From an uncultured virus (IMG/VR IMGVR_UViG_3300020572_000004) (lineage: Duplodnaviria > Heunggongvirae > Uroviricota > Caudoviricetes): a stretch of DNA of 64,000 nt. The notes below the pieces were generated by a model, which saw only the letters and a list, made by a program, of their open reading frames with translations, searched no databases and had not been told where the DNA came from. Shown piece after piece: positions 2,279 to 24,089 of the stretch (positions are counted from its first letter, which is position 1; every line of letters begins with the position of its first letter). The position numbers and the translations under genes are program-made. Location: IMG/VR virus record IMGVR_UViG_3300020572_000004; one strand, written 5' to 3'.

Positions 2279-3487
2279 TTAGAAAGGAACTTTTTCTGCA
2301 GCGACAGCGGATGCAGTAAGCGGCTCAGCTGGAGCAGTGATTTGATTGCTGTCAATCTTAGTGTAAAGATCGAGGAATGCTTCACGCGTTTCGTTTTCAA
2401 AGCGAGCAATGCAAAGACTGATGGCCTCAAGGCGGTTGCGGAAGATGCTGTATGCCTTGACAATGTGGCACAGACGGCGAGTACTGATAAGTTCGTCAAC
2501 GCCTTCGTCAGCGTAGGTTTTGCGGATAACCGCACTCCAGCTTACAAGCTTGTCAACAAATTCTTCGTCTGCAACGTCAAGCGCTTCCATGTGTTTGGCA
2601 ACAATGTTGCGCTCAATCTTGAATGCAGGATAAGGCTGATCAATGGTTGCCACGAAGCGTTCAATGAACGCTTCATCAATCACATTGGCAGCGCTATAGC
2701 GGCCGTCTTCACTGCCGCGGCCTTTGGTATTGGCAGTTGCAATCACGTTGAAACCTGCGGCTGGATGAATGATTTGGCCAATCTTTTTAACAAGAACAGG
2801 CTTGCCTTCAAGAACGCCTTGCAGGCACATAATCTTGTTGCTGCCACGGTCGAGTTCGTCAATCATCAAAATGCAGCCTCGTTCCATTGCCTTGATAACT
2901 GGTCCTTTATGGAAAACCGTTTCGCCGTTGATCAAGCGGAAGCCGCCAATAAGATCGTCTTCGTCAGTCTCTGGGCTGATTTGCACGCGGATGTATTCCT
3001 TCTTAAGCTTGGCGCAGGCTTGTTCGACCATCATGGTTTTGCCGTTGCCGCTCATGCCACTGATGTATAGTGGGAAAAACATGCCGCTCTCAATCACCTT
3101 CTTGACAGTCTTATATTCACCCCATTGCACAAAGGTATGGTCGACAGAAGGAATGTAAATGTCGTCATTGCTGATGCTGGTCAGCTTTGGCTGAGGCTGA
3201 GGCTTAGGAGTAGTCAGATTGAACACTGGAGCAGCTGCTGCTGGAGCGGCTGGCGTAGCAGGCTCACACATGGCATCGGTTGGTTTGGAGGCCAACACAG
3301 TAAGGTTATACAAGCCGCGCTTGACGGTACTCTTGTACTTATCGCACATCATATTGTCTTTGACTTGCTTGTAAGTCAGCCCCTGCTCACGGCCGACTTT
3401 ATACAGCTGAGCGCTGCTTACTTCCGTGATCGGGCCTGCGCCGAACAGCGCGTTGAGAGTGTTTTGGATCTTGGTTTGTGTATTCAT
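2279..3487 (-). CDS. MoxR/CobS/NirQ-type AAA+ ATPase
   Basis: Walker A GMSGNGKT, TDEDDLIGG, Walker B LMIDELD, FNVIATANTKGRG, AFIERF, ISTRRL. Confidence 0.9.
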   Translation of the reverse strand: MNTQTKIQNTLNALFGAGPITEVSSAQLYKVGREQGLTYKQVKDNMMCDKYKSTVKRGLYNLTVLASKPTDAMCEPATPAAPAAAAPVFNLTTPKPQPQPKLTSISNDDIYIPSVDHTFVQWGEYKTVKKVIESGMFFPLYISGMSGNGKTMMVEQACAKLKKEYIRVQISPETDEDDLIGGFRLINGETVFHKGPVIKAMERGCILMIDELDRGSNKIMCLQGVLEGKPVLVKKIGQIIHPAAGFNVIATANTKGRGSEDGRYSAANVIDEAFIERFVATIDQPYPAFKIERNIVAKHMEALDVADEEFVDKLVSWSAVIRKTYADEGVDELISTRRLCHIVKAYSIFRNRLEAISLCIARFENETREAFLDLYTKIDSNQITAPAEPLTASAVAAEKVPF

Positions 3488-3517
3488 AATGTAGTGGTTG
3501 TCAATTGGTACGAGATT

Positions 3518-3546
3518 ATTATAAACTAAATTCTTAGACTTGTAAA
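3518..3546 (-). promoter_or_regulatory. early-type promoter
   Basis: TTTACA-17-TATAAT upstream of the AAA ATPase. Confidence 0.8.
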
Positions 3547-3549
3547 GGA

Positions 3550-3741
3550 CTAAATGCGGTTAATAAGATTTCCACTGTTCTGAAGATATTCCAAATAAGC
3601 TTTAACCTGTGAAAGAGATTTAAATGTAGTAGAGACGGCCAACCAAGCCCCACCGCTTGTGCCGGTGTTGGCATTGCGTTTGTAGATTTGGACGCCGAGG
3701 TAGCTAGAATGCTTGGTGTATTTTGGAGTGAGAGTAATCAT
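3550..3741 (-). CDS. hypothetical 63 aa early protein
   Basis: Has its own promoter, and its leader AACCACTACATTATG is identical to that of the AAA ATPase gene. Confidence 0.65.
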   Translation of the reverse strand: MITLTPKYTKHSSYLGVQIYKRNANTGTSGGAWLAVSTTFKSLSQVKAYLEYLQNSGNLINRI

Positions 3742-3767
3742 AATGTAGTGGTTTGCCTTACAGAATT

Positions 3768-3796
3768 ATTATACACTAGATTTTGTGACTTGTAAA
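3768..3796 (-). promoter_or_regulatory. early-type promoter (near copy of 3518-3546)
   Basis: TTTACA-17-TATAAT, 250 nt from the other copy. Confidence 0.8.
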
Positions 3797-3857
3797 GGAC
3801 AAAATGAAGAATTTTTTCAGTTTTTTCTTACCATTGACAGTCAACCAGTTACGTGAA

Positions 3858-6221
3858 TTAGGCAATAATCTCTGCAAACTTGTTGAGGAATACGCGGGAC
3901 AGCTTCTTCTCGCTGGTGAATTTGGTGAATTGCTTAGCAAGGCGGTTCTGAGAAGATGCATCAGAGAAGCTTTCACTAACAACACTGCTGACAAATTCCT
4001 CGTCATCATCGTTAATGTCCAATCCGTTTTTACTATCAAAAACAAAATATGCATCATAGTTATATCCGCCTAAAATCATCATGCACTTTTCTTTGCGTGC
4101 TTCACGACTTTTCTTTTGGAACAATTCATTGGCGCTGCGCCATGGCAAGATCTCGCCATCTTTCTTTGCGGTATAGCGCAATGCAGTGATTGCAGTGCTT
4201 TTGTAGTCGCTGCGGTAATTGGCAACAAAAAATCCAATCACGGTGGTTCCACAGGTTATTCTGAGATTTTCAATCAGAGCGGCATACAATCCTTTATCAT
4301 AGCTGCGGAACATAATGTTGCGGCCGTTTACTGGAATCATGTTACCGCATTTCCATTCCGGAACGGTAGAAGCTTTACGGTATGTCTCATCGGCATTGTT
4401 GTAGTCAAAGTGAGCTTGGCATGCATCGCCATCAGTAAGGAAAATGGTATTCATCTTTTGTACATGATGGCGTGCCTTAAAGCGTTTCACAATTTCATGT
4501 GCAACAACAATTGTCTCGTTTAGGGGAGTGCCATTCATTACCTCATACTTGTTATTGCTGAAAGGCATACTGCCGTTTCCACCATGGCTGTCGGCATGCA
4601 AATAAGCCTGAGCTTTAAGTTCTTTGCATGCCAATTCAAACTTGTCACGCTTCATGGTGCTGTTGACCAATTCAAAAATGTGAGTATAGCGAAATGCAAT
4701 ATTGCTGCCAAACTTAAGATTAGGATCTGTCTCATGCTTATAATTGACTGGGCTGGTGAAGCCGTAAACTTCAAACGGAATACCTACTGCTTTGCAGAAG
4801 TACACCAGTTGCAGAGTCTGAACAATCACGCGTCCAATAGTATTGGACATGCTTCCAGAATAGTCGATGAAAAACACCATGCCATGGTTTTTAGCATCGG
4901 CCAGTTTGGTAATGCTACAGAAGATTTGATCTTCAAACTTATAGGCATGCAGGCGGTTCACGTCAATTGTACCTGTAGTACTTTGCTGTGCTCGGCTATA
5001 TTGGAATGCAGCTTTACGACGTTCAAATTCTTTGACCAACACGCTGATGTGCTTTTTAGTTGCAGACTTAAAGTCTTTCCAATCTTCTTGAACACCCGCG
5101 GCTGACATAAGCGCCACATAGCTGGTGCAGCGATGGCGTTCAGCCATAATTTCCTCAACGGGAATTACACACTTCATCATTTCCGCGGCATTAGGAGCAT
5201 TGCCAACAAGATAATCTGTAACAGTCTCTTGCATGTCATGCAGTTGCTCACCAAATGATTGCATGGTCTTGCTGGTCAATTCATCTTGAGCATTGCCATA
5301 GCCCGGCATGTTGTCAGGCACACTTTCTCCTTCGCCATCTTTATCAGCCTCGGCATTGCGGTCTTTCTTTTTAGAGTTTGCTTTTCTCTCATCGCTTTTG
5401 CCTTTTTTGTCTGAGGTTGAATCGGCCTTGTCAGAGGTTTTGCCGCCATCATCTTTGCTGTCACGATAAGTTTCTGTTCCGCCGTCTTTTTCATTGTCGG
5501 AATCTGATTGGTCTCCGTCGGTGCCATTCTCACCTTTACCAGCGTCATCGCTTTTTTGTTTGCTTTCCTTGCCGCGAGGAGTGGTTGGAGAATTTTCATC
5601 GGGGGTGTCTGGAGTTTTAGTTTCCGCCTCCTCCTCCTCCTCCTCCTCACGCTTTTCGATGCTGACCATTTCATATACGGTCTTGCAAATATCAAGTACT
5701 TCATCATAAGTTTCTGCTGCGCGGCATCGTGCATATACTGCTTCTTCAAGGTCATTCATTGGCACTTGCAGTTGAGTGCCAATTTTAGCGCGGATGTTTA
5801 AGCGGTCCGCAAAACCCAGTGTGCTCAAGTCAGTACCGTTAATTTTGAAAAAGTCTTTCTCAATAAAGTGTCGGTATCCTTCTTTGAAGCTATACACAAG
5901 GCCTGGGTAATTGTTCTGAATAAGCCGCTCAATGCGAACATCTTCTACAATGTTGCCAATATCAAATGGAACTCCTGGGAGTGCTTCATGAAAGCGGGCG
6001 ATTGCATCAGCTGGAGTATATAGCGCATGGCCAACTTCATGGCCGACCAGCAGGTCACTTACTTGCTTATTGTCAGCATTCCACATGGGCAATCCCAATA
6101 CACGTCGTTCGACATCAAAAAATGCAGTGCTGTAATTTCCAACACGAACATTAATGTTTTCTTTCGCTAGCAGCTTTGCTAGCATTTTCTGAGATTCGCG
6201 ATTTACAGTGGCGGCTTGCAT
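3858..6221 (-). CDS. CobT-like VWA-domain protein with N-terminal HExxH metallopeptidase-like region
   Basis: GHEVGHALYT...NIVEDVRIE; acidic/low-complexity linker; MIDAS FIDYSGSM, GTPL, FLTDGD. Confidence 0.85.
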   Translation of the reverse strand: MQAATVNRESQKMLAKLLAKENINVRVGNYSTAFFDVERRVLGLPMWNADNKQVSDLLVGHEVGHALYTPADAIARFHEALPGVPFDIGNIVEDVRIERLIQNNYPGLVYSFKEGYRHFIEKDFFKINGTDLSTLGFADRLNIRAKIGTQLQVPMNDLEEAVYARCRAAETYDEVLDICKTVYEMVSIEKREEEEEEEAETKTPDTPDENSPTTPRGKESKQKSDDAGKGENGTDGDQSDSDNEKDGGTETYRDSKDDGGKTSDKADSTSDKKGKSDERKANSKKKDRNAEADKDGEGESVPDNMPGYGNAQDELTSKTMQSFGEQLHDMQETVTDYLVGNAPNAAEMMKCVIPVEEIMAERHRCTSYVALMSAAGVQEDWKDFKSATKKHISVLVKEFERRKAAFQYSRAQQSTTGTIDVNRLHAYKFEDQIFCSITKLADAKNHGMVFFIDYSGSMSNTIGRVIVQTLQLVYFCKAVGIPFEVYGFTSPVNYKHETDPNLKFGSNIAFRYTHIFELVNSTMKRDKFELACKELKAQAYLHADSHGGNGSMPFSNNKYEVMNGTPLNETIVVAHEIVKRFKARHHVQKMNTIFLTDGDACQAHFDYNNADETYRKASTVPEWKCGNMIPVNGRNIMFRSYDKGLYAALIENLRITCGTTVIGFFVANYRSDYKSTAITALRYTAKKDGEILPWRSANELFQKKSREARKEKCMMILGGYNYDAYFVFDSKNGLDINDDDEEFVSSVVSESFSDASSQNRLAKQFTKFTSEKKLSRVFLNKFAEIIA

Positions 6222-9249: not shown

Positions 9250-9867
9250 TTAGGCATTTAAAAAATCTGTAAGAGGGCCTGCACTCTTCTTAACACTTGC
9301 AACTCTTTTGGGAGCAGTTTTCTTTTGAGGCAATGCTTCGCCATTTGAAGTACAGCGCTCAACATTGTAAAAAGCATCATTTTTTTGTCGAATCTTTTCA
9401 ACCATGGTTTCACCGCCATTTAATGCATCATCATCAAATTGTGCAAACATACCAATCCCACCTTTTTCAATCAAAAGTTGCTTGATTGTGGTTTGCTTTT
9501 TTTCCTTAGCAATACGTCGGAGGAAAGCAAAGTATGCAATTTGTGTAAAGTAACTAAAAGCATTGGGTGCGCCTGTGCGAGTAGTTTTAGTAACATCATA
9601 ATTCATAATTGCTTTAACGCAATTTTCTACTGCATCCATAACCATATCTTCACGGTAACTGTAATTCATGAAACTTGGGCTGCGTGCTAGGCCATTACAA
9701 ATTTTCATGAATGCTTCACCAATATCATTGGGAATGTTGGGTGGCTCGGTTCCCGCTTCTTTAGCGGTAGTCACGCTGTTTACATATGTCATAACCTCTT
9801 CACTAAATATTGCGTTATTAACATAGTCGGTACCACGACTTTTTCTTTTTGGTTTTTCAATCTGCAT
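9250..9867 (-). CDS. gp55: late-transcription sigma factor
   Basis: YVNN, FMNYSYREDMVMDAVENC, NAFSYFTQIAYFAFLRRIAKEKKQ. Confidence 0.95.
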   Translation of the reverse strand: MQIEKPKRKSRGTDYVNNAIFSEEVMTYVNSVTTAKEAGTEPPNIPNDIGEAFMKICNGLARSPSFMNYSYREDMVMDAVENCVKAIMNYDVTKTTRTGAPNAFSYFTQIAYFAFLRRIAKEKKQTTIKQLLIEKGGIGMFAQFDDDALNGGETMVEKIRQKNDAFYNVERCTSNGEALPQKKTAPKRVASVKKSAGPLTDFLNA

Positions 9868-21036: not shown

Positions 21037-22425
21037 TTATAAGCCGCTCCATTCTCGGTTTTGCTCTAGGGCTTCTTCATAGTATTGAGAGCTTTCTGGA
21101 GCATCTGACACATAGTTGTTTATGATTCCAAACAGTGGAACGTCTTCGTCCATCTCTCGTATCTTTTCGCTATACAAGAGTTGCTTAAGATCAACATTAC
21201 TTATACCGCCAAATGCATCAGTGCTAACAAACCATGAAAACATTACAAGATTCATTACCAAGTCATCGTGCGTACTTCCACGCGCCGCATAGCTGTCGCC
21301 CTTTGGCTCAAAGCTGCTAAGTTCTGAAATGGTGTCTATATCACATACTTCCAGCTTACCGCTTTCAATCAAGTCTTTAAGATTACTACAGCCAATTCGT
21401 TTAACTCTTTTTGTCATTACCACGCCAATGCCGTTGCTTTTGACCGCACTTGATACAAACATATTATCATATTCATATTCATAGTATACAGCATTACAAA
21501 CAACTTGTCCAGCATCATTATTTTCAATAACCACCATTGCATTGTTATATTGCTTGGCGGCACGCACTATCAATTCTGGATATATCAGTGGACTAATTAG
21601 ATTATCACGATAAGTACACACCGTCTTGAATGGCATGGTGCTAACATCGAAAACTGTAAATGTACTATAGTCCTGCCCTCTCCCTTTGCAAACATCAACC
21701 GTCATGATATACTCATGCCCTTCAACCGGATCATCATAATAGCGTATGCCATATTGGCGCTTGCTTGGCTCAACGCCTTTTAGACCTAGTAGTGCTTCAC
21801 TGCTAATTAGAGTAGCGCTGCTGCCAATAAAGTTAACTTCAAATTCTTGGGCAAACTGCAATTCGCTGCTGTTAGCAATTGTTTGACGTTTCCATGCTTC
21901 ATCCCGCCCAGGAACATCGCTCCATTTGATTGTGAATGGTTTAAATTCGCTTGTCTTTTGTACCGCGCCTTCCCACAAGCGATAAAACATATTGCCTACG
22001 CCATTAGGTGTACTTGTGATGATCACCTTGGTATCTTTACCAGATGAAATAACAGGATAGGTACTTGTATAAAACTCATTTGCATTTTGCACGAACGCAA
22101 ATTCGTCAAGAAAAATACAGTTATGACTAATTAATCCATTTGTATAATATGCATGAGTATCTTTAACATTTAGCAAATCATAAACCGATTCATTTGCAAT
22201 TTCATTTATACTTTCTATACAGATATTTGTGTAAAGTACATCTCCAATTTGTAAAAATCTTGCAGGTATATATGTTTCACCATCATCCATTAAAAGTTCA
22301 TGATCAGGCGTGCATTTGATACTCTTATCAGCAGTACATGTAATATATAGAAGACTATCTGAAACACCCTTATTTAGTATTCCATCAAATTGCTTAAACC
22401 CTTTATGCGTTAATACCTCAATCAT
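21037..22425 (-). CDS. gp17: large terminase C-terminal part preceded by a 102 aa C-intein
   Basis: MIEVLTHKGF...KCTPDH...VYDLLNV...YYTNGLISHN|CIFLDEFAFV (Walker B), STPNG, DVCKGRGQDYS, HDDLVM nuclease motifs. Confidence 0.93.
   Translation of the reverse strand: MIEVLTHKGFKQFDGILNKGVSDSLLYITCTADKSIKCTPDHELLMDDGETYIPARFLQIGDVLYTNICIESINEIANESVYDLLNVKDTHAYYTNGLISHNCIFLDEFAFVQNANEFYTSTYPVISSGKDTKVIITSTPNGVGNMFYRLWEGAVQKTSEFKPFTIKWSDVPGRDEAWKRQTIANSSELQFAQEFEVNFIGSSATLISSEALLGLKGVEPSKRQYGIRYYDDPVEGHEYIMTVDVCKGRGQDYSTFTVFDVSTMPFKTVCTYRDNLISPLIYPELIVRAAKQYNNAMVVIENNDAGQVVCNAVYYEYEYDNMFVSSAVKSNGIGVVMTKRVKRIGCSNLKDLIESGKLEVCDIDTISELSSFEPKGDSYAARGSTHDDLVMNLVMFSWFVSTDAFGGISNVDLKQLLYSEKIREMDEDVPLFGIINNYVSDAPESSQYYEEALEQNREWSGL
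22120..22425 (-). mobile_element. C-fragment of atypically split intein (IntC, 102 aa)
   Basis: Block B TPDH, block F VYDL, block G SHN, followed by Cys+1 at 22119-22117. Confidence 0.9.
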
Positions 22426-23363
22426 TTCTTAGTTGTGTTAACCCATCCAGTTGGCGCTTCATGCGGAAAGTAATATCCTCTTTTGGATGCATCTGATGGA
22501 TCGGTGAAGTATTTCTTACCTTTATTCTTAGCAATCATTCCCTTTTTAGCAAGTGACATTTTATCTTTAGATTCTGCGCTACGTTTCATACCTCTGTGTT
22601 TTTCAGCAGTCTTACGTATCTTTTCTGGATTATGATTTATTTTTGAAACGTGGTCTGCGCTCTTTTTCATACCAGTCAATGCCTTGCTAATCTTTTCGCC
22701 AAACCCATCTGGCTTTGGCATACCTTTTAATTTTTGCGATACAATCCGGCCATTAGATTTTCTCGTTTCAGGTAAAGCTTCTATCATTTGGTTTCTTTTA
22801 TGATAAAATTCTTCGGCTGCGGATTGAATACCAGGCAATTCATACTGTATATTACCATTAGGATTGCCGCATTCATAAATTACTTTTACTCGCGCAGCGT
22901 GGGCATTGCAATCTTTAAGATAACCCAATTCATTTATTGCATCCTCTACGGTATGGAATATTCTTCCATCAGTGTGTGCTATTTTATAACCATTTCCAGT
23001 AGGCAGTCCGGTTTTTTGTTTACTTAATTTTTCACGAGTTTCTTTACTATGCGTCTTTCCGTAAAATCCATTATTTTCACCATGCAGTACACAAACGTTA
23101 CCTCCAACTGATAGATTATAAGTGTCTTCTCTTAAAGTAAAGTCACGATCAACAATTCTTTTTTCTTCAGCCTCAGCTTCTTCTTTGGTATTGTATACAG
23201 CTAAGATTTCTTTATTAAATTGGTCAACCCCATACTTCTCAACAGCTCTTCTTATCAGTTTACCCGATCCCATATATCCATCATCTATGTTACACGTAGA
23301 ATGATAACCTACATAGATTTTGCCATTAATTTTATTAGTGATTTTATAAACCGTATAATACAT
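22422..23363 (-). mobile_element. GIY-YIG homing endonuclease gene with NUMOD3-like repeats
   Basis: MYYTVYKITNKINGKIYVGYH...YMGSG...YNL; GKTHSKETREKLS and GMKRSAESKDKMS; own GAGGA RBS and TATAAATA at 23387-23394. Confidence 0.9.
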
Positions 23364-23975
23364 ATGTTCCTCGATGAGTTTACTTTTATTTATATAATCA
23401 TCTATTTTAACATAGTAAATTGCATCATTTTCATATATGCAAATTTTGGTATCACCTGTCACACAATTCATACTCAAGCCTCGAATGCTACTACCGCTAG
23501 TTGCCGCTGCAATAATTTGGCTGTTGTTGCTAAACTTGATACTACCTTTGTTCAATACCTTACACCCAGGCTGCAGGAAGAATGGCAGGTTCTCCAACAT
23601 TAGTGTAAGGCGGCTCAACATCTCACGTGCAGTTGCACCTTTGTTGGCAAGTATACCAATAGTCTTGTCAGGATTAAAGATGACATAGTGAAGGAGCCAT
23701 GCCACACTTGTTATACTTTTACCACTTTGACGACATGCTAATACTATATTGAAACGGTTATCACTAAAATGTTTTACCATATTTTCTTGATAACCACGCA
23801 GCTTAAAAGGAACAAGCCCATGATCCAAGTGAATAACCTTTACATACTGCTCACAAAAATAACCAACATCTGCCATGCAGCGCTGATATTCAACTATCTC
23901 ATGAGCGGTAAAGTTTTGCTGCACACCATCGCCCTTCACGTGTGGGTTGCCATTATAGTTAAGTCCAGAATTCAT
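22422..23975 (-). CDS. gp17: large terminase N-terminal part fused to N-intein and GIY-YIG homing endonuclease
   Basis: YNGNPHVK, LRGYQ, Walker A ACRQSGKS, ILANK, SIRGLSMN|CVTGDT (intein block A), then the endonuclease in frame. Confidence 0.92.
   Translation of the reverse strand: MNSGLNYNGNPHVKGDGVQQNFTAHEIVEYQRCMADVGYFCEQYVKVIHLDHGLVPFKLRGYQENMVKHFSDNRFNIVLACRQSGKSITSVAWLLHYVIFNPDKTIGILANKGATAREMLSRLTLMLENLPFFLQPGCKVLNKGSIKFSNNSQIIAAATSGSSIRGLSMNCVTGDTKICIYENDAIYYVKIDDYINKSKLIEEHMYYTVYKITNKINGKIYVGYHSTCNIDDGYMGSGKLIRRAVEKYGVDQFNKEILAVYNTKEEAEAEEKRIVDRDFTLREDTYNLSVGGNVCVLHGENNGFYGKTHSKETREKLSKQKTGLPTGNGYKIAHTDGRIFHTVEDAINELGYLKDCNAHAARVKVIYECGNPNGNIQYELPGIQSAAEEFYHKRNQMIEALPETRKSNGRIVSQKLKGMPKPDGFGEKISKALTGMKKSADHVSKINHNPEKIRKTAEKHRGMKRSAESKDKMSLAKKGMIAKNKGKKYFTDPSDASKRGYYFPHEAPTGWVNTTKK
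23364..23465 (-). mobile_element. N-fragment of atypically split intein (IntN, at most 34 aa)
   Basis: CVTGDTKICIYENDAIYYVKIDDYINKSKLIEEH begins where terminase similarity stops. Confidence 0.85.
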
Positions 23976-24089
23976 AATTATTGTAATACTTTTCCAAGAG
24001 ATTGCCAATCTTTAAACTTTTGACTCTTACATCTATTTATACATAAGGATTGCCGTTTGGATGACTCGACATATTTATTTATTTTTACC

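Follow-up and report, generated by a model that had tools for sequence, protein, structure and literature searches.

How does a homing endonuclease (HE) gene remain expressed in its own right when it lies, without an intervening stop codon, in the reading frame of an essential gene? The terminase gene TerL raises this question in a 64,000-nucleotide (nt) stretch of DNA from an uncultured virus of the Caudoviricetes (IMG/VR record IMGVR_UViG_3300020572_000004), referred to below as the window; all of its genes are encoded on the minus strand and form a T4-like structural-gene block. Here, a single 528-codon open reading frame (ORF; 24008-22422, minus strand) encodes the N-terminal part of TerL (TerL-N), an N-intein (IntN) and the HE without any stop codon between them; by Pfam, Terminase_6N lies at its front, and GIY-YIG, SegE_GIY-YIG and NUMOD3 lie behind an internal ATG. 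The next ORF (22425-21037, minus strand) holds an intein splicing domain, that is, the C-intein (IntC), together with the remaining part of Terminase_6N and Terminase_6C (TerL-C). At the IntN-HE junction the minus strand reads GAT TAT ATA AAT AAA AGT AAA CTC ATC GAG GAA CAT ATG, and a preliminary description had placed a late-promoter box (TATAAATA, 23394-23387), a GAGGA motif (23372-23368) and the nuclease ATG (23363-23361) there within the open TerL frame, all of which the minus-strand sequence and the ORF map bear out. From comparison of this sequence with its relatives, we consider it probable that the box is a working gp55-dependent late promoter of the HE cassette, with the TerL-N-IntN-HE fusion being made from the TerL transcript and the free HE together with IntC-TerL-C from an internal transcript.

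Late-promoter boxes in the window

The window contains 15 copies of TATAAATA against 7.25 expected (standard deviation 2.56; as many are reached in 2 of 100 shuffles), and each of them lies on the minus (coding) strand; no copy was found on the plus (non-coding) strand of the whole window, where the shuffles lead one to expect ~3.6 per strand. Minus-strand ORFs cover 60,960 of the 64,000 bases and leave 3,040 bases non-coding, and 12 of the copies are in these non-coding bases, two are on a stop codon and a single one, the internal TerL copy, is wholly within an ORF. For 55 other 8-mers of the same composition, by comparison, the mean is 4.29 copies inside ORFs and 0.85 outside. The other 14 boxes are 6 to 105 nt from the next gene start, and the internal box is 23 nt from the nuclease ATG. 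Thus, the phage positions TATAAATA before genes and avoids it within genes. One of the intergenic copies stands ahead of the TerL gene itself (Table 1), for which the ATG at 23975 aligns with the TerL starts of relatives.

The window also encodes a homologue of the late sigma factor gp55 (9250-9867; phrog_234, E 1.3e-46) and a gp45 clamp (860-1534; phrog_223, E 2.7e-67). According to a T4 review that is cited here and below from part of its text (PMC2988020), T4 late promoters have an 8-bp box whose first T is at -13, roughly one helical turn ahead of the transcription start, and an AT-rich segment just downstream of the box. Of the ten bases behind the internal box (AAAGTAAACT), 8/10 are A/T, which makes this segment AT-rich in the sense required for late promoters, and by analogy to T4, transcription would start at ~23381, the position that the preliminary description had also given.

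Conservation of the box among relatives

A scan with IntC-TerL-C recovered the same phage twice (L001, L010), its relatives L002 (97%), L012 (about 92-96%) and L057 (73%), and many intein-less TerL genes as well. Fusion, box and ATG are present in all four distinct sequences of the same layout (the window phage, L002, L012 and L057), and L057 retains them despite a 3-nt indel and many nearby synonymous changes. A search with the nuclease protein gave 1280 matches at E <= 0.001, and among the best 120 of these most have 500-548 amino acids (aa) and contain Terminase_6N, i.e. they are fusions, while the homologues of free-standing size (300-385 aa) start with a Met directly ahead of the YYTVYK strand. 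Scanning with a nuclease profile yielded 80 loci, with TerL-N upstream in 58 of the 80 and IntC downstream too in 54, and collapsing identical junctions left 41 distinct TerL-HE junctions. We refer to a junction as fused if it is open in frame for >100 codons upstream of the nuclease, by which criterion 28 of the 41 are fused and 13 are not; a 29th junction (L128) is open over 82 codons and falls under this threshold.

Of the 41 junctions, 24 carry the exact TATAAATA at most 90 nt ahead of the HE strand (17/28 fused and 7/13 not fused), and 34 have the relaxed form ATAAATA/CTAAATA. By comparison, the background rate is 0.014 per 90 nt, with 23 copies in the 146,321 nt that make up the same strand in the rest of these loci. 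We aligned 29 of the junctions, leaving aside L095, L097, L098, L103, L105, L114, L117, L118, L121, L122, L124 and L128 for their divergent linkers, and in this alignment 6/8 box positions are conserved to >=90%. The box is read as xxT-ATA-AAT-A (x-I-N-K) in the clade of the window and as AAG-TAT-AAA-TAC (K-Y-K-Y) in the clade of L097, and in the unfused L107, L108, L111 and L137 it persists and is followed by 1-nt indels and stops. Because the box survives both register changes and frame-shifting indels, it is conserved at the nucleotide and not at the protein level; moreover, no more than 41% of the Ile codons in these ORFs are ATA. Box variants occur as well, such as AATAAATA in L108 and L111, in agreement with A at -13 being the commonest deviation of the T4 late box (PMC2988020). 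The box statistics of the window and this conservation in relatives lend support to the proposal, made in the preliminary description, that the site is a late promoter.

Internal start codon and possible coupling to the C-terminal half

Among the fused junctions, 26 of 28 contain an internal ATG no more than 12 codons ahead of the GIY strand, and in 23 the distance is <=3 codons, whereas only 22.7% of 12-codon windows in the same ORFs contain one. Moreover, 13/13 unfused relatives start at the corresponding ATG. This conservation supports the view that the internal start continues to be used, and, with the fusion kept in 28/41 junctions, it appears plausible, as had been suggested, that the nuclease is produced in a free as well as a fused form.

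The part of the preliminary description that found no support is the assignment of GAGGA as ribosome-binding site (RBS). In the window, a Shine-Dalgarno (SD)-like 4-mer precedes 4/57 gene starts and a 5-mer 1/57. Of the 1574 ATGs on the minus strand, 53 have such a 5-mer ahead of them, and GAGGA by itself does not exceed chance expectation for an RBS. GAGG was not found in the close relatives L083 and L084, nor in L087, and the GAG of GAGGA forms part of a conserved block that probably has a different origin (see below). We also observed that the distance to the following ATG is only 6-8 nt for seven of the 15 TATAAATA boxes (26352, 27136, 28741, 29274 and 38851 with a gap of 6 nt, 58569 with 7 nt and 16626 with 8 nt). 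The late mRNAs of these seven boxes would be leaderless or nearly so because +1, if it lies 6 nt past the box, adjoins the ATG; a literature search on leaderless late mRNAs in T4-like phages gave no match.

At the other end of the nuclease gene, the HE stop and the IntC start overlap as ATGA in 23 of the 40 junctions that include IntC, with other small overlaps in 6 more, as counted with a crude script test. Because of this overlap, a transcript from the internal box would also carry IntC-TerL-C, and the translational coupling through ATGA that had been proposed is likewise plausible.

A model for expression of the fused and the free nuclease

Taken together, these observations point to a model in which the internal promoter belongs to an HE cassette lodged in an atypically split TerL intein. 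As the N-intein here is without a stop codon, the former 5' leader of the HE would be read as a linker (NKSKLIEEH), and TerL-N-IntN-HE would be made as one chain from the transcript of the TerL promoter. A second late transcript would start at ~23381 from the internal promoter, the free endonuclease would be translated on it from the ATG at 23363, with GAGGA probably dispensable as RBS, and IntC-TerL-C, probably together with downstream genes, would be made via the ATGA overlap. From motifs, nucleotide-level conservation and gene architecture, we thus infer promoter activity, the start site, internal initiation and a possible effect on the ratio of the TerL halves.

Architecture of the split TerL locus

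The intein-less alleles L003 and L004 read ...SSIRGLSMN-V-IFLDEFAF, and the window reads ...SSIRGLSMN|CVTGD... and ...GLISHN|CIFLDEFAF; because the intein-less alleles read across the same point, the intein is positioned directly ahead of the Walker-B motif. The C-intein matches PDB 6DSL chain B ('Consensus engineered intein CatC') over residues 2-101 (E 3.7e-10) and has the hallmarks of block B TxxH (CTPDHE), a terminal HN (...SHN|C) and Cys+1, with Cys1 being on the N-piece. Using phmmer, the 34-aa N-part gave no meaningful PDB match, and we assigned the length of the N-intein by analogy to AceL-TerL (25 aa) and Cat-TerL (30 aa) (PMC11766414). In those relatives whose N-intein is closed by a stop codon, the chain ends 2-6 codons past INK. 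On the grounds of its likeness to these systems, we class the intein with the atypically split TerL inteins AceL, GOS and Cat, and it may splice in trans. A blastn comparison with named phages returned distant TerL and HE pieces only and no annotated twin.

Table 1 Features of the split TerL locus and of the putative internal promoter region
Feature	Positions	Strand	Basis
TATAAATA late box ahead of the TerL gene	24034..24041	minus	Intergenic; 25 nt before TTG 24008, 58 nt before ATG 23975
TerL N-extein, ends ...SSIRGLSMN	23466..23975	minus	Pfam PF03237 Terminase_6N; intein-less alleles L003/L004
N-intein core, 25 aa, CVTGDTKICIYENDAIYYVKIDDYI	23391..23465	minus	Begins at the Cys directly behind SMN
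Internal TATAAATA, putative gp55-type late promoter	23387..23394	minus	Codons Y24 (third base)-I25-N26-K27 (first base) of the N-intein
Conserved block of 18 nt, AAAAGTAAACTCATCGAG, read as KSKLIE in the linker; antisense-like copy of the Walker-B codons	23370..23387	minus	Reverse-complement match
Predicted transcription start	23381	minus	+1 six nt past the last A of the box, by the T4 rule
GAGGA, Shine-Dalgarno-like, RBS role doubtful	23368..23372	minus	GAGG 5 nt before ATG
GIY-YIG/NUMOD3 HE frame, 313 aa from ATG 23363	22422..23363	minus	PF01541, PF19835, PF07460; in frame with TerL-N and IntN
ATGA overlap of HE stop and IntC start	22422..22425	minus	ORF map
C-intein, 102 aa including Met, ends ...GLISHN	22120..22425	minus	Similarity to PDB 6DSL chain B; boundary from intein-less alleles
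Walker-B codons L-D-E-F-A-F, CTTGACGAATTTGCGTTC	22093..22110	minus	Partner of the antisense-like block
TerL C-extein, CIFLDEFAF..., rest of Terminase_6N and Terminase_6C	21037..22119	minus	Pfam; allele comparison

Two relatives carry further inteins in TerL. In L012 (2669-5077), a second split intein and a second GIY-YIG-like ORF lie further along TerL (ORFs 2669-3364, 3297-3968 and 3950-5077), and in L057 (1119-4004), a 961-codon open frame contains one more intein, inserted at the Walker-A site (GK|C...SHN|S), with an HNH-like ORF (1480-2376) in another frame within this region.

An inverted Walker-B-like block next to the box

The conserved block behind the box resembles the reverse complement of the codons for the Walker-B residues L-D-E-F-A-F, 1.3 kb downstream in the C-extein. 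In the window, the block matches its own Walker-B 18-mer at 12/18 positions, and a free 18-nt scan of the C-extein start gives 13/18; the match reaches 15-16/18 in L087, L090, L091, L097, L102, L104, L114 and L120, and in the eight best loci 0 of ~180 random 36-mers from the same locus match as well. Over 39 loci, the mean is 11.9/18 versus 9.5 for shuffled Walker-B codons, and >=13/18 is reached in 14 loci versus 0.36% of shuffles. A repeat search recovers the block/Walker-B pair in L097 (22 nt, 86%), L120 (22 nt, 82%) and L114 (20 nt, 90%); chance pairs of similar size occur in every locus, and the weight of this result rests on recurrence at the same place. The block triplet follows the change in the extein for DEM (L114), DEV (L116, L125) and DET (L108), and it does not do so in L110, L111, L137 and four DEA loci. 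Matches within a locus exceed those across loci, with 1/5000 permutations reaching the observed sum in a test that ignores relatedness. Finally, the 42 nt from the box to the fourth codon of the nuclease in the window match the inverted empty site of L003 at 27/42 positions (reached in 0/300 shuffles) and that of L004 at 25/42 (10/300).

Long-range RNA pairing between block and Walker-B codons was considered as the main explanation and rejected. In the clade of L097, the block lies upstream of the box, and in the clade of the window on the other side; the mismatches between block and Walker-B codons in 24 loci comprise 28 G.U, 39 A.C and 46 other pairs. RNA pairing is thus unlikely, because the block of the L097 clade lies outside any late-promoter transcript and because there is no preference for G.U.

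It is tempting to speculate, though we give this idea no more than a modest chance of being correct, that the ~42 nt at 23394-23353 are triple-coded as the end of the N-intein plus linker, as a late promoter and as an inverted mimic of the nuclease's presumed homing site in TerL, which may be the Walker-B region across the intein insertion point. Binding of the nuclease, either free or as an excised IntN-HE/IntC complex, would then shut the internal promoter, and the mimic would track the Walker-B codons of each lineage. If this were the case, output of the nuclease and of the TerL C-terminal half would be tied to splicing.

RNA structure of the nuclease leader

In the HE leader, RNAalifold found no conserved base pair in the 29-row junction alignment (0 pairs). 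The leader of the window folds at -13.5 kcal/mol (z -1.09), with 25/200 shuffles folding at least as well, and in its minimum free energy (MFE) fold, ACUAUGUU is paired with AACAUAUGU so that the pairing spans the start codon. Among nuclease relatives outside TerL, L148, L151 and L158 have clear stem-loops of the classical RBS-hiding kind ~50 nt before the ATG that end at the start codon, and the exact TATAAATA is upstream in 4 of 16 nuclease loci outside TerL. In the 'fractured genes' described in 2009, a hairpin occurs in 15/16 HE 5' untranslated regions (UTRs), ten containing TATAAATA (PMC2677866, likewise cited from part of its text). Where the host gene is early or middle, such a hairpin may delay nuclease synthesis. 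At TerL, this delay, and with it an RBS-hiding hairpin, would not be needed because TerL itself is late with its own box (24041-24034). Read-through ribosomes would then need no blocking, so that the stop codon after the N-intein could be lost; a missing hairpin fits a late host gene and may in this way explain the possible loss of the stop codon.

Weighing the alternatives

Several points weigh against a promoter that serves an internal start. The exact box is absent from 17/41 junctions and even the relaxed form from 7/41; the junctions are phylogenetically related, and their counts are therefore descriptive and overstate the number of independent events; and the box overlaps the conserved Walker-B-like block, which is a possible partial cause of its conservation. 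The T4 review notes, in the part cited, that some catalogued late boxes lack proof of activity in vivo (PMC2988020), and since TerL has its own late box ~650 nt upstream of the internal one, the internal promoter is not required for expression. As to the internal start, SD motifs are nearly absent from the phage, leaving no evident ribosome route to the internal ATG, and L086 has ACG (1501-1503) where the near-identical L085 has the nuclease ATG, with the fusion frame still open; the nuclease could be made only as a fusion in L086, or the ACG could be a sequencing error. The latter points also speak for a real late promoter with an unused internal ATG, where the nuclease would be made only as a fusion and released as IntN-HE by trans-splicing and the promoter would boost IntC-TerL-C and downstream late genes. 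This arrangement is in line with the lack of conservation of GAGG, with the in-frame fusion in 28/41 junctions through many linker lengths, and with T4 precedents for downstream-gene promoters within HE regions (PMC2988022, also cited from part of its text). We nevertheless regard it as unlikely, given that 26 of 28 fused junctions retain the ATG at a distance of up to 12 codons, and 23 of up to 3, against the 22.7% of the control, and that all 13 unfused relatives and the free-standing homologues begin at the same Met.

The DNA from 23394 to ~23353 might instead be mainly a protein-binding site, i.e. an inverted mimic of the homing site serving for autorepression or as a second target, with TATAAATA being kept as part of it and not, or not only, as a promoter. 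The block/Walker-B match above shuffles in 39 loci, its independent recovery by repeat search in L097, L114 and L120, the 27/42 match to the inverted L003 empty site (0/300 shuffles) and the excess of own-locus over cross-locus matches all agree with such a site, as does the operator of I-TevI, which overlaps its own late promoter and has 15/20 nt as in the homing site (PMC2988022). We judge it improbable as the main function because the box flips side relative to the block between the window and L097 clades, fitting a separable promoter better, because the 18-mer match in the window is only 12-13/18 (13 being reached by 110/300 shuffles), because covariation is partial, with DEA, DEH, one DEM and one DEV locus not following, and because the loci are related, not independent, and the homing target is presumed. 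There is very little to be said for chance or protein constraint having made the I-N-K codons at the end of the N-intein spell TATAAATA with no promoter. I-N-K is conserved in many relatives, the region is AT-rich, and ATA (41% of Ile codons in these ORFs) and AAT (82%) are common codons; yet the 8-mer is kept in the other register (K-Y-K-Y in L097) and across frame-shifting indels, on which grounds we rejected a protein-level explanation of the box, the window avoids it inside ORFs (1 versus 4.29 expected), and residues past position 25 are not needed for splicing because AceL-TerL works with a 25-aa IntN (PMC11766414). Least credible of all is a switch of the I-TevI or Aeh1 mobE type, in which read-through transcripts would have the nuclease RBS hidden in a hairpin and transcripts from the embedded late promoter would have it free. 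Such a switch is the usual device in fractured genes (15/16 HE 5' UTRs; PMC2677866, in part), stems are visible in L148, L151 and L158 outside TerL, and the MFE fold of the window spans the start codon; the idea is largely refuted by RNAalifold (0 conserved pairs in 29 rows) and by the shuffles (z -1.09), and ribosomes on the fused frame would melt the stem. We therefore favour the reading of the internal box as a late promoter of the HE cassette with an internally initiated free nuclease.

Implications

Self-promoted HEs, TATAAATA before split-intein nucleases (2009), the oddly split terminase intein and the IntC overlap are already in print. In the literature covered, which leaves aside the original reports on AceL-TerL and GOS-TerL and the supplements of the 2009 paper, we came across no account of a promoter within N-intein codons that are translated, of an in-frame IntN-nuclease fusion or of the Walker-B-like block. 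What the locus adds is a putative promoter in translated codons of an essential gene that is conserved at the nucleotide level across diverged uncultured phages, fused or not, and that may bear on the balance between the two halves of a split terminase. The inverted Walker-B-like copy makes a hypothesis of I-TevI-like autoregulation directly testable for an intein-borne nuclease, and the fusions represent natural IntN-cargo fusions for protein engineers who use the AceL-, GOS- and Cat-TerL inteins.

Comparison with known systems

The closest parallel is provided by the fractured genes of Dassa, London, Stoddard, Schueler-Furman and Pietrokovski (2009; PMC2677866), which include a gp17 'Terminase' locus. 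As far as the cited part of that paper goes, they share with the window an enzyme gene broken by a split intein, a GIY-YIG HE gene between the halves on one strand, an HE end that overlaps the start of the C-terminal half, TATAAATA just upstream of the HE start and, for the terminase, an intein with an uncommon split position and a long C-part. They differ in that their N-intein ends in a stop codon, behind which 27-51 bases are non-coding and in most cases contain a hairpin, whereas in the window there is no stop, the leader would be translated as a linker, the putative promoter lies in codons and no hairpin was found. AceL-TerL, GOS-TerL and Cat-TerL (PDB 6DSL) similarly have a short N-piece and a C-piece of ~100 aa in phage TerL. 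In the review by whose description we compare them, the atypically split TerL inteins have an IntN of 25-37 aa that ends at a stop and an IntC of 104-115 aa (PMC11766414), while the N-piece of the window continues in frame into a 313-aa nuclease.

Among HEs without a split intein, mobE in the split nrdA of the Aeromonas phage Aeh1 also splits an essential gene and has a late promoter before its own start (PMC2677866 and PMC2988022, both in part); it encodes an HNH enzyme, has no intein, and its promoter lies inside an RBS-sequestering hairpin. HEs of T4 introns have their own middle or late promoters (PMC2988022, in part). Of these, I-TevI in the td intron is, like the nuclease of the window, a GIY-YIG enzyme with a late promoter box immediately upstream, and differs from it in residing in a group I intron of an early/middle gene with an RBS-sequestering hairpin, as opposed to an intein of a late host gene with no hairpin found. 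The promoter of I-TevI overlaps a sequence like its homing site (15/20) that is an operator for autorepression (PMC2988022), and in the window the 42 nt at the putative promoter resemble the inverted empty site of TerL at 27/42 positions, a likeness that makes it conceivable that an intein-borne nuclease shuts its own promoter in the manner of I-TevI.

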